A stretch of DNA of 64,000 nucleotides from Phyllosticta citribraziliensis (taxonomy: Eukaryota): positions 992,001 through 1,056,000 of the forward strand of contig NW_027117339.1 in the NCBI RefSeq assembly GCF_038025025.1. The letters are read 5' to 3'. A model generated the notes under the pieces. It was not told where the DNA came from, made no database searches, and saw nothing but the letters and a program-made list of their open reading frames with translations. Shown here one piece after another: positions 27,214 through 34,500 of this stretch (the stretch's first letter is position 1; every line of letters begins with the position of its first letter). Both the position numbers and the translations under genes were made by a program.

Positions 27214-28665
27214 ATGTTTGCCCGAGCGGCCTGCAGAATTCCGCTGAGGATAATTCCGCGAGCGCCTGCGGCGCGTCAGTCCCCCCGCATTGGTGCTCGC
27301 ACATTTTCCAGTCTTCCGACCCAGACGAGACCGCGCCTACAGTCGCCACAATTGACCCGCGTCGGCCGCCGCAATGCCTCGAGAAGGACCTTTATCGAAG
27401 GCTACAAGGCTCTATGGAGGGACTCGCCCTTCCAGCTCGTGCTGGTGACCGCCATTATCGTGGGCTGCATGGGGGTATTCGCATGGCTGCCCTTCTGGTA
27501 CATGCAACACCAAGTCAAGCCATACCACAATTACCCAGAGGAGGTGGCAAAGAAGCTCCGCCGAGCCATATACTATAGCAGAAGGGCGTCTTTCCAGCCA
27601 AAGGAGGTCATTCGGTATTACCGCGAGGCGCTGGCCCTCGCCGATGAGCTCGGCATGGACCCGTTCAGCGACGAGGTGCTGGGCATCCGAATCCAGATGG
27701 CGGGCTTCTTCGAGCTCAAGCTCTCGTCTCATCGGTCCGCAATCGATATGCTGGAGCTGGTCAAGAATGACTGCTATTTGTGGATGGACAAGCTGGGCGA
27801 CAAGCATTGGACCGACGGCAAGCGGACGAGGGTCTTGATCCGCATCATGAGCATCCACACCAAGCTGGGCGAGTTGTACTCGAACCAGTACGTCAAGGAC
27901 TTTAACAAGGCCGAGGAAAATCTGCAGACGGCCATTTCAATTGCCATTGGAGAGAAAATGCGGCGCCAGCGCGATGGCGTCAAGGTAGGCGAAGGCGACT
28001 GGATCGGCGACGACGAATTAGGAGCCGAAATGGAGCGTAGGCTGCCCCCATCCCCCTAACTCTTATTACACGATTGACCTGTCCTTCCAGAGCTCGGCCA
28101 TGTCTATGAAGCCAGCGATCGACACTTCCTCGCGGCGCCGCTCTTCCTCCAAGCGATCCGCCTGTCCCCCAAAGACTCGTGCCACACGGCAATCCTCATG
28201 AACAACCTCGCCATCTCACTCGCTCAGACGCGTCCGCCCTCCGGCCCTGCCTACAACTCGCCCGTCTTCGAAGTCACCACCACCGAGCCCAGCCAGCAGA
28301 AGTACATCAACCAAGCAGCGTCGGCGCAGAAAAAGTACCACGACGAACAAGCCGCAAATGCCGCGGCCATGGCCGCTGCCGCGCAAGCTATGCCCTCGCG
28401 CACCGAGCAGGGCCGCCTGTGGGCGCAAAAGGCGATTGAGTTGACGGCCAACATCAAGCCGCCGGTGCGTGATGAGGAGTGCGACCTGGCGTGCGCCGTG
28501 GCGACGCACAATCTGGGCGAGTTTGCGGAGATGGAGGGACGCATCAAGGAGGCACGCAAGTGGTACAATGAAGCGAAGAGCCTAGCCAAGGCGATTGGCT
28601 TTGAGGAGGGGGTCCAAAATGCGGATGAGGGAGTGAAGAGATTGAAAGGGAGGAAAGATGCTTAG
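27214..28665 (+). CDS. Mitochondrial TPR protein, Mgr3-like, 2 exons
   Basis: Arg-rich presequence, single TM helix, YPEEVAKKLRRAIYY, GMDPFSDEVLGI, CHTAILMNNLA, CDLACAVATHNLGE. Intron about 28037-28090. Confidence 0.8.
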
Positions 28666-29340: not shown

Positions 29341-30259
29341 TTAATCCGGATGCTCCGTGTCTGACAACAAGATGGGCTCCGAATTAGTGTCTCCAAGCAA
29401 AGTGCTGCTTCCACTAGGCCCTGCCGCACCTGATTTCTCGATCGCCCTCTTGGAACGGTTCGACTTTTTCATGACCATCGGGCGCTTGGGCACAATAATT
29501 TGTTTCCCTTTGCTTCCTTGCGGAGCTTTTGCAGCCACCGTGGAGGCGATGGCCACCGTCTTCTTCGGCGGGGTCTTCTCAGGCTCACGCTCCACGCGTC
29601 CAAAGCTCCAGCTGCTGAACCTCTCGCCCCACGTCCGGCTGCTGTTGGACGACAGGTGGAGTCCGTCGACAGCAGCGGCAGCAACGTCTGACACTTCGGA
29701 GGCGAGAGAGGCGGAGCGGGCTCGGCGACGGTTCGAGTCATGGACGTCGAATTCGAGGGCACGGTTGTGATTGTTGACGTTGTCGCTCGAGGCTCGCGGG
29801 GCGTGGAGGTCGACAGCTGCGGCAAGGAGGCGCTGTCGTTTGCGCGGTCGAGAGTTTGCAATTGCGTTTGGCTGCTGTTGTTCCTGGTTTTCGGTTTCCC
29901 AGCGAGCAATGATGGCATCATCAGCAGGACTGGCCATGCTGTGGAAAGAAGCATGGTGGTCGCAGCCGTCGCAGGTGAATGACGATGAGAGCTGTGTAGT
30001 TGGTTTGTTAATTTTGCACGCAGTTAAAGACACAGACGCGTGGATAATTGTAGCTTCGCAAGGAGAGGCCCCAGAGCTTGGAGTACGAGAGAAATTGAGA
30101 GAATGCTGGAAGGCGGACGCGTACCTTCAGTGGGTGCAGCATAAACCGGAGACAAGGACATTTGGGCGAGAGCAACGAGTCCTTGTGATTGCACGGACCT
30201 CGCGGAGGCGTGTAATTCATCTGCCTCCAGATGGAGTCTTTGGAAAAGGTTGGAGCCAT
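29341..30259 (-). CDS. Hypothetical protein with N-terminal Cys/His cluster, 2 exons
   Basis: MAPTFSKDSIWRQMNYTPPRGPCNHK...CPCLRFMLHPLK, intron about 29992-30124 (GTACGC...CAG), then LSSSFTCDGCDHHASFH and a disordered tail with RPRKRQR. Confidence 0.75.
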
Positions 30260-30603
30260 GGTGAAGGCTCTGCCGCAGTGGCCCTCGTTGCAGAGAGAGA
30301 GTTGTCGAGAGTTGGGGAGGCTGGGGAGGCCGACGCGGTTGCATGTGCTCGGGGAATGGCTGGCTGGCTGACCGGGGTTACGCCACTTAGCTCCGGTTGA
30401 CATTCCGAGAAGGAAGCCGCGGTGCCTGGAGAGGCTTGGCGCCCCACCCTCGGACTAGGCCATGATTCCGCTCCGCTGGCGCGACCTTCCAGTTCCCGTC
30501 GCGAGCTCTCGACCGTGTCGTCGTTTCCACCTCAGCTACCTAGGTTACCACCACCGTTTACGACGCAAAACAACTTGGTTCCGGCGCAAGAAGGGTCGCG
30601 ACA

Positions 30604-31507
30604 ATGCCCAAATATGAGTTCCCCTTGAACCGCAATCGTCTGAAGCTTTACTGACTGCGTATCCACATTTTTGTAGGTGCTCCAGAACCTCCGCATCACC
30701 GCAATCGACCGCATGAAATGCTAACACGACTGGTCAAGGCGATTACTGCGATGTCTACCTCACTCATGACTCGATGAGCGTGCGCAAAGCCCACAACAGT
30801 GGCCGCAACCATCTCCGTAACGTTGTTGAATACTATCAACGTACGCGCCACCACCTCGACCTGCGAAGGACCTGCGGGCTGATGACAAGATAGAGATCGG
30901 TCATGAAAAGGCGCAGAGCGTCATCGACTCCATCACCAGCTCATACGCTGCCGAAGGCCAGCAGAATCCCATGTTCCAGCCTCTAGGAGGAGCGCCTGGC
31001 GGTTTCGGGCCTCCGCCATTCCCATTCCCCCCGGGTTTGTCAAGTCCAAAGGCTTCCACCCTAGTAAATCACTAACATATTTCAGGTGGAATGCCTCCTC
31101 CTTTCGTTGGCGCCCCAGGAGCTCGTAAGTGTCCCTACTGTCTCGTCTCTTCAATACAAAGATCGCCGCATTGACTTGTTCAATTAGCTGGCGGCCGTGG
31201 CATGCCCCCAAACATGCCCTTCCCTCCTCCGAACATGCCTCCTGGCGCCGCCCCGCCGCCTGGACAGATGCCTTTCCCTCCCTTCCCGCCGAACGCATCG
31301 GGTTCGCCCGCGCAGGCCATGCCCTTTCCTCCACCTCCAGGCGCTGTGCCTCCGGGAATGCCACCCAACTTCCCATTTCCGCCCGGAGGTCCTATCGCCA
31401 GTGGCGGGAGCCCTTTGCCGCCGCCTAGCGCTTTTCAAGCGCCTCCAGGAATGGGAGGTCCTCCGGGTGCCCCGCCTGCTTCTGGGCCTCCTGGAGCAGC
31501 GAGATAG
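30604..31507 (+). CDS. YHC1: U1 snRNP protein C (U1-C/Yhc1), 6 exons including a 6-nt microexon
   Basis: Reconstructed [51 protein letters not shown] (matrin-type zinc finger) plus a Pro/Gly/Met-rich tail. Exons 30604-30613, 30667-30672, 30739-30840, 30894-~31034, 31086-~31124, 31188-31507. Confidence 0.95.
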
Positions 31508-34500
31508 AATCACAGCTGGGGACACTGAGGTGGATATTCAAGGAAAAGAAGGCGTTGTCAACTGGCGCTCAAAGGAGTTTAGGCACAGGGCTGGGATTGT
31601 CTGCGAATTGATTCATGGCCAGTCGAGAGTTTAGGTCTCGAGTAGATCCGGATATACGGTGCAGAAGGCAAAGTGTAATTGAAGTGAGCCTGACCACAAA
31701 GACATCCGACCCTTGGAACCATCGGCTTGCGAGGTGAGATCTGTGTCATCTGCTTGCGTGACGTCGGAGAGTTTGGAAATCCACATGGACGTGGCGACTT
31801 GGAGGGAAAGATCGGCTCGACATTCGCTCCATCTGCACGCTTGTATGACGTCCACTGATTTACTAGACGGATACATCCCGAGTAGTACCATATCTTACTT
31901 TCGCACCACTCTGCAGGTAGGCAAACGTCTCCTCCAATCTGAGTTTTGAGTGAGCCTCATTTTCACCTAATATTTCACTTGCTAGTGCTGCACTATGTTA
32001 ACGACCCCCATCTACAACAGAGCCATGCATACTCAGGACCCGATCGCGACTCAAAGGCTCCAGAGTACATCTTCGTGGTCACGAGGATCGTCAAGTTGAC
32101 TGGCTTGGCACACATCACTGTTCCGACCTTGTGACGACAGCAGGTTTTGCGGTCTTGTGCTGCCTTACTGTTCAGGGATCGCCTCTATATCTCCCTTGAA
32201 CATGATATACCAGATTGTCACACGTGGGATGTGCTGATTCGAACGGTCAGACCACCAGATCCAGCGACGTCAGATTTGTTCGGCCATGCAAGTAACCATC
32301 TCAGACAGTGTTGTCCTTGCGATGTGCGGGAGTGCCACCATGAATAGCGCAGAGGCTCGCCGCAAATGTCGCCGTGGTCAAAGTACGCCTTTCTCTAAGC
32401 CTGGAAGATATGGCCTTCCAAGTAAGGAGAGACACCAAAACAGTGTCAGCTGCGCAAGAAGTTGTCGTACCATCGTCGGCCCTAAGATGAAATGTCGTGT
32501 TGTTTCCGGGACAAGGCCTTCGTGTTTGGTTGCGGTCAAGGAGGCAACAGAACTGCCGAAGCTCGCATTGACTGCCCCTGAAATGTCAGTGAGGCCCATC
32601 TCACCAAGGCAGAGTCTAGAACCGCGCACTTACGAAGGCGCATTGTAGGTGTTTAGCCGACATGGTCGAAACGTTGCGTGCCGCCTCAAACAACCACAGC
32701 TCCCGGCAACGATGCGTTCGCCTGACGACTGAGGCAGAAACTCGGGAGTATCGTCTCCATCCAGAACTCACCAAGCTAACTATTTCCTGAGAGTTTAACC
32801 TAGCAACTCTTGGTCTCACTCGACTTTCTCCTTTGACTGCGACGTCACTCTTTCCCAACAATCTCATCCCTGGATTTGAGATCCATTCGTTTACGATCCG
32901 ATCAATACTGATCGAATTCCACCACACTGGCAAGAATTTCGATCTTCGGTCACTTCGTAAATCCTCAGCCACGAAATGGGCAAACGGCGTGGCGGACGCC
33001 TCAACCGCGAGAGGCGCCGGCCAACCGACGGAAGAGGCGTCTTCCCACCCCCATCTCACCAATGACATTTCTTGAAATACGATCGAGCAGATGGTGGTTG
33101 GCGACCACGGGCCTCGCCACCACCCCACCAAATAGACACAGCGAGCCAGCCACCCAGTGGGATGGACATGATAACGCCGAGCAGCTGTAGCGCGGTATCT
33201 GAGCCGGAGAGGCAGCCGAGACCAGACTATCAAAAGAGCCGAGACGCGAGGGGCGACACACGTAAAGACACGATGGCAGAAGCAGGATTTCCCGTCGCTG
33301 ATGGTTGTTCAGAGCAGCTGCGCCGGGCTCGGGCGACGACCCGGCCACGACGGGCCCGCGGGCACTTGCAAGGAGGAACCCGCCCCGAGGACGGCGGACA
33401 GGGAGGCTGTCAACTGCCACTAGGTCGACGTAAGATCGGTGGCCAAGCCCAAGACATTGCAGGCGGGCAGCCTCAGCACAGCCGGCTGGGCGGGCGGCAG
33501 TTGCGACCATGACGTGCATTGGAATGGAAGGATAAATCGGGACAGTCCAGAAGGTGGCAGTGGCAGGAGTACGGTAGTAGGCCAGCGGGGCGAAGCGCTG
33601 CGGTGCGTGCGGTGCGGATCGGGCCACACACAAGTTGCTATTATTGCAGCGTGGCACCCGTGGGAGCGCGGCGAGCGTCTGAAGTCGAGGCTTGTCTGCC
33701 ATGATCGGCTGCTTGGGAGAGCGCCCGCGCGACTTGGGAGAACTTGGGACGCAGGGAAAGGGGGGACGCGCCGCGTGCGCATCGCCTGTGGCTGTGTTCG
33801 GCCGTCGACCGCACGTGTTTTCTTGCTGGGGTCTACGCTGTAGGGCGTTGCATTTGTTATATCTCTATTTTTCTTGGTTGGTTGGTTCTTCCATCTGGCG
33901 ATTGCGATGATGATTTGTCGATCGTGGCGTCAGGTTAGTCGATGCACTTTTTTATTGGCTTGCGCTCGGAATGTTGTCCGCAACGAGTGTGGTTTTGCTA
34001 CGCTGCTGCACCATCCTGAGATGGCTTCGTCCTCCCTCCCTCAAACTCTGAAACTAGGCAGACATGTGATTGGCGACGTCGGTGACACGAGTACGTTGGG
34101 GTCGGCCGAGACGTGTGGGAGTTGAGATTGATTCGTGTGAGAGAGTGCCCCCCAACTTGTTTGGCCACTGTGTTTTATCTAGAACGAATGTAACGATGAC
34201 ACCTAGATTCAATGATAGAGACGTCATGCTGTGGAGTTTTTTATAGAGGCTAAGAAGATCTCCGGGAATGGAATGTGAATTTGCCAAAATGCAGTGACTT
34301 CATACACGAGACTGGTAGAGAGGCATTTTTCACAGCAGAAGAGTGCTGTTGTGACTGTATATCCGTTGTATGTACACGACGCAGCGCAAACAGATTGCGC
34401 TTCCAAAATAAAGAAAACTCCCCTTTAGAAACTAAGTGTGCCCTCGGCATCTCTAACACTGAATCTCTATACCGCGGCATGTGGAAGTCCCAGGCAGTTG

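Follow-up and report, generated by a model that had tools for sequence, protein, structure and literature searches.

How are the first six residues of U1-C encoded at a locus where the zinc finger of the protein is readily recognised but its beginning is missing? The locus lies in a stretch of 64,000 nucleotides (nt) from Phyllosticta citribraziliensis, here called the window, and sequence relationships place it as Phyllosticta-like (Botryosphaeriales, Dothideomycetes). Judged by sequence, window positions 30604-31507 on the + strand are the U1-C gene of such a fungus, coding for protein C of the U1 snRNP (small nuclear ribonucleoprotein). The translation of exon 3 alone (30741-30839) matched the Pfam family zf-U1 (PF06220) with an expect value (E) of 2.5e-17 over profile positions 7-38 of 38, and since the match begins at position 7, exactly six upstream residues are absent from exon 3, including the first zinc-binding Cys. 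Exon 3 opens at 30739 with GCGATTAC, and the letters onward from 30739 are GCGATTACTGC. With exon 4 as the query, 361 proteins were found as U1-C homologues at E <= 0.001, many of them named U1 snRNP C; the best was the Phyllosticta paracitricarpa model P0001, at 97% identity over the matched part.

A sequence-only reading of this DNA had proposed that the conserved start is restored by removing an intron that begins with AT and ends with AC (AT-AC) and then a GT-AG intron, with a 6-nt microexon between the two. The bases it quoted were all found correct on reading 30001-31800, and joining 30604-30613, 30667-30672 and 30739 onward did yield MPKYFCDYCD. The spliced coding sequence, 618 nt for 205 amino acids, has the C2H2-type U1 zinc finger from residue 1, with the MPK[FY][FY]CDYC start of U1-C proteins. 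Its first six codons are split among three exons; the microexon completes Tyr4, encodes Phe5 and starts Cys6, the first zinc ligand, with one base. We consider it likely that intron 1 is a U2-type (major-spliceosome) intron in which A at the first base is compensated by C at the last (A1/C-1), followed by the microexon and a GT-AG intron, and that no regulatory role is needed for the conservation of this arrangement.

Four public sequencing runs from four studies were aligned to the window. X1 and X2 are from organism A and X3 is from organism B; X7 carries the label plant metagenome and is an RNA-Seq library, the sole run of the four recorded as RNA. Runs X1-X3 appear to be RNA as well, given five clean intron removals and adaptor letters at 5' ends, which stand immediately 5' of the contig starts at 30544 (X1) and 30550 (X3). 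In every run a single contig spans the gene with all five introns removed. The contigs differ from the window, over the aligned pieces, at 0 (X1), 0 (X2), 16 (X3) and 28 (X7, record 5) positions, X3 and X7 being from relatives. The first joint in all four runs goes from 30615 to 30739 with TTTT between; this is the predicted message, because the aligner slid the AT of the microexon onto the identical AT at 30614-30615, and the contigs read ...AAATAT+TTTT+GCGAT.... The junctions of intron 1 and the microexon were thus recovered from transcripts, and the 6-nt internal exon stands between two real introns in the messenger RNA (mRNA) represented by each of the four contigs. The first ATG in 30531-30620 is that at 30604. 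Read depth was zero over the introns in all four runs, which for assembled contigs is uninformative on retention; similarly, no contig retaining intron 1 and its stop was present among the four runs, in assemblies that drop rare forms. Two further X7 contigs end ...ATGCCGAAGTACTTCT before exon 3; they represent MPKYFC messages that come from different fungi within that sample.

Conventional splicing does not give this protein. All GT-AG and GC-AG models with at most two introns of 35-600 nt, starting at any ATG in 30100-30741 and open and in frame with exon 3, were enumerated, and none of the 4,091 produced an MPK[YF][YF]C N-terminus; the sequence-only reading had likewise found no GT-AG solution. 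In 53 of the models two aromatic residues precede the first Cys; each of these reads ...AYPHFCDYC and starts from an ATG at 30103-30462. Those ATGs fall outside the transcript contigs, which start at 30531-30591. A direct AT-AG splice from 30613 to 30739, giving MPKCDYC, is contradicted by the TTTT insert. From the window alone the first cut can be written as AT..AC, TG..CA or GA..AT. The latter two were rejected, as the microexon of relatives (TCTTYT) begins with T and so fixes AT..AC, as does the junction AAAT+TCTTCT that one metagenomic contig (L013, below) supplies for the AT-AC intron of a further species.

Comparison with other fungi showed that the unusual termini are not peculiar to this assembly. 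Eighty U1-C loci were retrieved from metagenome contigs with an alignment of 16 database proteins. There was no intron at either site in 44 of them (MPKFFC in 37, MPKYFC in 7), and 11 have a single phase-1 GT-AG intron after ATGCCNAAR-T. Ten have a GT-AG intron, a 6-nt microexon and a second GT-AG intron, while another ten (L043, L046, L054, L055, L057, L062, L063, L064, L068 and L071) have an AT-AC intron, the microexon and a GT-AG intron, as in the window. One locus (L061) has a single AT-AC intron, without intron 2 or microexon; one (L013) lacks intron 1 and has intron 2; and the remaining three are cut, upstream (L075) or at the contig end (L019 and L056). A 6-nt microexon in this position is thus shared by 20 of the 80 loci, ten of each kind; in L013 the six bases are fused directly to exon 1. 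Locus L061, which is Chaetothyriales-like, shows the AT-AC state to be independent of the microexon arrangement.

At the shared phase-1 site, GT..AG termini occur in 21 loci (17 distinct sequences) and AT..AC termini in 11 (all distinct), and mixed termini, AT..AG or GT..AC, occur at this site in none of the 80. The first and last bases thus covary in an all-or-none manner: among distinct sequences plus the window there are 12 AT-AC against 17 GT-AG introns (Fisher p 1.9e-8, with relatedness ignored). Several AT-AC loci lie on long contigs, of 840 kilobases (kb) for L046, 88 kb for L061 and 12 kb for L043, and hence the AT..AC state is one of genomic DNA. RNA editing, for its part, was rejected, the state being present in the DNA of many loci. 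Database proteins tell the same story. The P. paracitricarpa model P0001 starts MSDYC, which is the one GT-AG model that uses ATG 30614 and GT 30618, so that the genome of this species appears to have A at +1 as well, with an annotation that lacks the first Cys. Models P0120 (Rhinocladiella), P0009 (Villophora; Teloschistales, Lecanoromycetes) and P0005 read MPKY followed by K or R into the intron, which requires A at +1, and P0005 also reads ...EHSSVG, as expected of CAC-TCTTCT-GTAGG. The conservation of the AT-AC intron in related fungi, which had been put forward as a check, is accordingly borne out.

These observations bear on another explanation, that an assembly error, or another upstream exon with a GT-AG intron, accounts for the odd start. 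No point in its support was found. Eleven independent metagenomic loci show the same two-base state, which the P. paracitricarpa model also implies, the transcript contigs start downstream of every alternative ATG, and no conventional model fits. We give this alternative almost no credence. The features of the gene are listed in Table 1.

Table 1. Features of the U1-C gene in the window, with the evidence for each.
Feature	Position	Strand	Evidence and remarks
5' untranslated region of U1-C transcript	30531..30603	+	no ATG inside; spliced contigs start 30531 (X2), 30544 (X1), 30550 (X3), 30591 (X7)
Coding exon 1, ATG CCC AAA T (M P K + base 1 of codon 4)	30604..30613	+	sequence, contigs
Intron 1, 53 nt, AT..AC	30614..30666	+	skipped in contigs of 4/4 runs; homologous AT..AC in 11/80 loci
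Intron 1 donor ATGAGT	30614-30619	+	sequence
Intron 1 branch motif CTGAC, branch A 12 nt from 3' end	30651-30655	+	sequence
Intron 1 3' end ATCCAC	ends 30666	+	sequence
Microexon ATTTTT, 6 nt	30667..30672	+	AT+TTTT between exon 1 and 30739 in 4/4 runs
Intron 2, 66 nt, GT..AG, donor GTAGGT at 30673-30678	30673..30738	+	sequence, contigs, relatives
TAG within intron 2 donor	30674-30676	+	sequence
Intron 2 branch CTAAC; 3' end CAAG at 30738	30721-30725	+	sequence
Exon 3, rest of U1 zinc finger, ending ...YYQ	30739..30840	+	Pfam zf-U1; contig pieces in 4/4 runs
Intron 3, 53 nt, GT..AG	30841..30893	+	joint 30840 to 30894, 4/4 runs
Exon 4	30894..31034	+	homologue search, contigs
Intron 4, 51 nt, GT..AG	31035..31085	+	joint 31033 to 31085 (cut +1), 4/4 runs
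Exon 5	31086..31124	+	contigs
Intron 5, 63 nt, GT..AG	31125..31187	+	joint 31124 to 31188, 4/4 runs
Exon 6 coding part, proline-/glycine-rich tail, stop TAG 31505-31507	31188..31507	+	contigs, coding sequence

Which spliceosome removes the AT-AC intron? Intron 1 is removed with AT and AC ends, and positions +2 to +6 of its donor and its branch motif are of major-spliceosome consensus. The 12 AT donors, the window included, are ATAAGT in ten cases, ATATGT in one (L046) and ATGAGT in one (the window). G is at +5 in 12 of 12 AT donors versus 9 of 17 GT donors, and RAGT is at +3 to +6 in 11 of 12 versus 5 of 17, where five of the GT donors form one close GTAACC cluster. All 12 AT-AC introns have a CTRAY branch motif 11-12 nt before the terminal C. 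The length of intron 1 is 50-57 nt in two-intron loci of either kind, AT-AC or GT-AG, as expected of one homologous intron. When 10 representative AT-AC loci were aligned, the conserved columns were AT..GT, CTRAC, AC, the microexon and GTAGG, with AT and AC invariant, and no conserved element was found in the interior of intron 1.

Introns of the minor, U12-dependent spliceosome have donors of the ATATCC or ATATCCTT-like type and TCCTTAAC-like branch motifs. An intron of this class could explain the AT..AC termini, and the ATATGT donor of L046 shares four bases with the U12 donor. None of the 12 AT donors is ATATCCTT-like or ATATCC, however, which agrees with the earlier statement that the window's donor is unlike the U12 type, and none of the 12 branch regions is TCCTTAAC-like, all having CTRAY instead. 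Further, 21 loci have this intron in the GT-AG form with GTAAGT-type donors, and Ascomycota and Pezizomycotina are reported to lack U12 splicing (PMC2846911). A U12-type intron is thus highly improbable. The motifs, together with the reported lack of U12 splicing in Pezizomycotina, suggest that intron 1 is removed by the U1, U2, U4, U5 and U6 snRNPs.

Mutagenesis work shows that the first and last bases of an intron are in contact for the second step of splicing, and that an intron with A at +1 tolerates C as its last base but not G. This work and the covariation of the two bases are discussed in PMC4299874. The donor of intron 1 may be described as the ordinary fungal GTRAGT with A for G at +1, and its last base as C for G. 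Such a paired change would preserve the non-Watson-Crick contact required by the second catalytic step, and the major spliceosome would then complete both steps on intron 1 and yield mRNA. On this account the AT-AC state would be maintained chiefly by the cost of reverting one base alone, which in either case would be lethal, as an essential gene would no longer be spliced; the only easy escape would be to lose the intron altogether, and 44 of the 80 loci are without it. Because a return to GT..AG needs two simultaneous changes, conservation of AT..AC is expected without regulation.

The place of the intron nonetheless makes a feedback loop an obvious hypothesis, for the gene encodes a protein of 5' splice-site recognition: U1-C stabilises the pairing of U1 with the 5' splice site. 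The A(+1) donor might be a sensor, such that intron 1 is taken out only at full U1 snRNP and U1-C activity, and a shortage or surplus of U1-C shifts the proportion of retained, stop-containing RNA, which feeds back on U1-C output. Retention of intron 1 would bring an early stop, translation ending after 16 codons; the AT-AC state persists in two or more classes of fungi; the rest of the AT donor is nearly perfect, as the RAGT counts above show; and the levels of human U1 snRNP proteins, U1C and U1-70K, are reported to be coupled through alternative splicing (PMC3798272), so that splicing feedback among such proteins has a parallel. Against the sensor, intron 1 has no conserved internal element, and the donor-strength contrast is confounded by relatedness, given the single GTAACC cluster among the GT donors. 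The device would also be dispensable in many lineages, since 44 of the 80 loci lack both introns and 21 have GT-AG, and the barrier of two changes predicts the same conservation anyway. We regard the sensor as unlikely.

If a step is regulated, it could instead be the removal of intron 2, its off-consensus GTAGG donor, 6 nt after the AC acceptor, slowing removal and leaving a frame-shifted transcript. The intron 2 donor is GTAGG followed by T, C or A in all 10 two-intron AT-AC loci, in the window and in L013, and in the six distinct GT-AG two-intron loci it is GTAAGT, GTGAGT, GTATGT or GTAAGC, never GTAGG. The TAG of this donor is the first AG downstream of the intron 1 branch point, at 30674-30676 in the window, where a competing TAG had been pointed out; shared ancestry and constraint are both possible reasons for the donor pattern. 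The contig L013 also speaks for intron 2: it is 1,030 nt long, its whole length (1-1030) is 81% identical to L071 (100-1178), and it lacks introns 1 and 3 and keeps intron 2, with the frame shifted. Its simplest reading is a partly spliced U1-C transcript in which intron 2 is removed last or retained; otherwise it might stem from a genome in which two non-adjacent introns were lost. But this is one contig of uncertain kind, GTAGG may be simply inherited, and the form assembled in the four runs has intron 2 removed. Regulation at intron 2 seems to us quite improbable.

The two ideas can be combined: a conserved sensor of U1 snRNP dosage, kept since before the Dothideomycetes and Eurotiomycetes split, might consist of the A(+1)/C(-1) intron together with the 6-nt exon and the conserved off-consensus GTAGG donor. 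We hold this to be doubtful. Were it true, a cell would obtain productive mRNA only by recognising both of the unusual 5' splice sites, which lie 59 nt from each other, and U1-C would set its own level via retention and decay of the unspliced RNA.

How widely, and how often, did the AT-AC state arise? Loci L054, L063, L064 and L068 had by far their best scores against the U1-C proteins of Cenococcum and Glonium (Gloniales, Dothideomycetes). The centractin gene beside L061 is 91% identical to that of Cladophialophora immunda and 86% to those of Cyphellophora and Exophiala, which puts L061 in or near the Chaetothyriales (Eurotiomycetes). By these sequence affinities, the AT-AC state is one that occurs in at least two fungal classes, Dothideomycetes and Eurotiomycetes. 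The GT-AG loci with the microexon scored best against U1-C of Helotiales (Venustampulla, Lachnellula) and the single GT-AG loci against Sordariomycetes; U1-C similarity resolves only the Cenococcum-like group, and some top scores, such as that of L043 against Stylonectria, are probably from the low-complexity tail. The upstream neighbour of the window's gene is common only to intron-less loci and was no help in placing the AT-AC loci. A tree of 74 loci was built from 147 coding bases, and 8 of its 55 branches are starred. GT-AG is probably the older state, and AT-AC may have arisen once, in the Dothideomycete, Eurotiomycete and Lecanoromycete part of the tree.

Several points weigh against a compensated major-spliceosome intron that is kept without regulation. 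On the tree the AT-AC state needs six changes, two of them forced by well-supported branches; the tree of 147 nt is weak, so that it makes no decision between one and several origins. The use of U1, U2 and U6 rather than the minor spliceosome is drawn from motifs and one paper, and A30614 and C30666 rest on the assembly and on relatives. A purely neutral account does not explain the pattern of GTAGG donors unless by shared ancestry, and L013 raises the possibility that a relative of L071 makes an unproductive isoform in abundance, as would suit regulation.

The AT-AC intron and the microexon also matter to annotation in practice: a gene finder limited to GT-AG and GC-AG introns and making no 6-nt exons is unable to build the true U1-C N-terminus. 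Among 120 database relatives of U1-C (P0001-P0120), 34 have the full MPK[FY][FY]CDYC start and 72 start later, namely 38 inside the finger (at MSVRK or MYLTH), 7 at DYC without the first Cys, and 27 only before exon 4; a further 3 read through the AT donor, and 11 are otherwise odd. The late-starting named models include those of Phyllosticta, Cenococcum, Glonium, Venturia, Emydomyces, Emmonsia, Talaromyces, Cladonia and Lepraria. The true N-terminus is missing from most of these Pezizomycotina entries, and the starts MSVRK, MSDYC and DYC occur in named genome annotations. Many of the 120 entries come from intron-blind gene callers, so not every truncation is due to AT-AC, and the AT-AC intron accounts for some, perhaps many, of the truncated models. 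In model P0104 (Lachnellula suecica) the reading continues into intron 2, giving MPKFFCKSS.... Full-text literature searches, which covered few subscription journals and no supplements, turned up no account of a fungal U1-C gene with an AT-AC intron or with a microexon. [quoted passage not shown]

The surroundings of the gene were also surveyed. A 3,161-nt contig of X1 covers 30350-30518 and stops 13-32 nt before the U1-C contigs start, and the two transcription units are thus very close. Open reading frames at 29341-30126 and 30008-30454 on the - strand have relatives upstream of U1-C in 14 intron-less loci (L012, L016, L017, L023, L067 and others), which makes the gene at 29341-30518 (-) a conserved neighbour. 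When six neighbouring open reading frames were searched against Pfam, the sole match was to TPR, and the conserved upstream neighbour had none; the match, to TPR_12 (E 2.2e-7), lies in the open frame 28078-28665 (+). An Rfam scan of 1-64000 returned no family at the gathering score, and no transfer RNA, small nuclear RNA or small nucleolar RNA was recognised in the window.

How does the U1-C intron compare with known systems? Engineered mutants in yeast and mammals, in which a G1A change is rescued by changing the terminal G to C, follow the same rule, that A(+1) works only with C(-1). Those were reporter or actin introns, whereas in U1-C the A(+1)/C(-1) pair has become fixed in nature, in two or more classes of fungi. 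The locus is thus a clean natural case of compensation between the first and last bases in what would be the major spliceosome, one position being GT-AG or AT-AC and never mixed. A sodium-channel intron is the classic example of a U2-dependent AT-AC intron. The U2-dependent 'type II' AT-AC introns of animals and plants, as described in PMC1557818 and PMC7072748, likewise have AT..AC termini with a GT-AG-like donor and branch, are spliced by the major spliceosome, are very rare and are often conserved between species. Unlike them, the U1-C intron is 53 nt long, abuts a 6-nt exon and is found in a lineage reported to lack the minor spliceosome; its host gene encodes a factor of 5' splice-site recognition, and the homologous intron is GT-AG or AT-AC in related fungi. 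U12-type AT-AC introns are alike in their terminal dinucleotides but differ in donor and branch motifs, and their machinery is reported absent in the host lineage (PMC2846911).

The Xlr2 gene of Trichoderma also has a very short internal exon in a filamentous ascomycete (PMC11121469). According to that source the Xlr2 microexon is alternatively included, as a switch, whereas the U1-C microexon supplies obligatory zinc-finger residues and is in the assembled transcripts of all four runs. The cross-regulation of human U1C and U1-70K (PMC3798272) is a precedent for coupling, but in a different gene, mechanism and organism. The closest parallel in sequence is the telomerase RNA of Aspergillus. Its 5' splice site, AUAAGU, reported as conserved in telomerase RNA (PMC3603654), is the same donor hexamer, ATAAGT, as in 10 of the 12 AT-AC U1-C introns, and it is used by the major spliceosome of filamentous ascomycetes. 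In telomerase RNA, A(+1) meets AG and processing halts after the first step, with G at +1 restoring full splicing (PMC4299874); in U1-C, A(+1) meets AC and both steps finish. The two together offer a direct contrast, ATAAGT with AC finishing splicing and ATAAGT with AG stopping after the first step.

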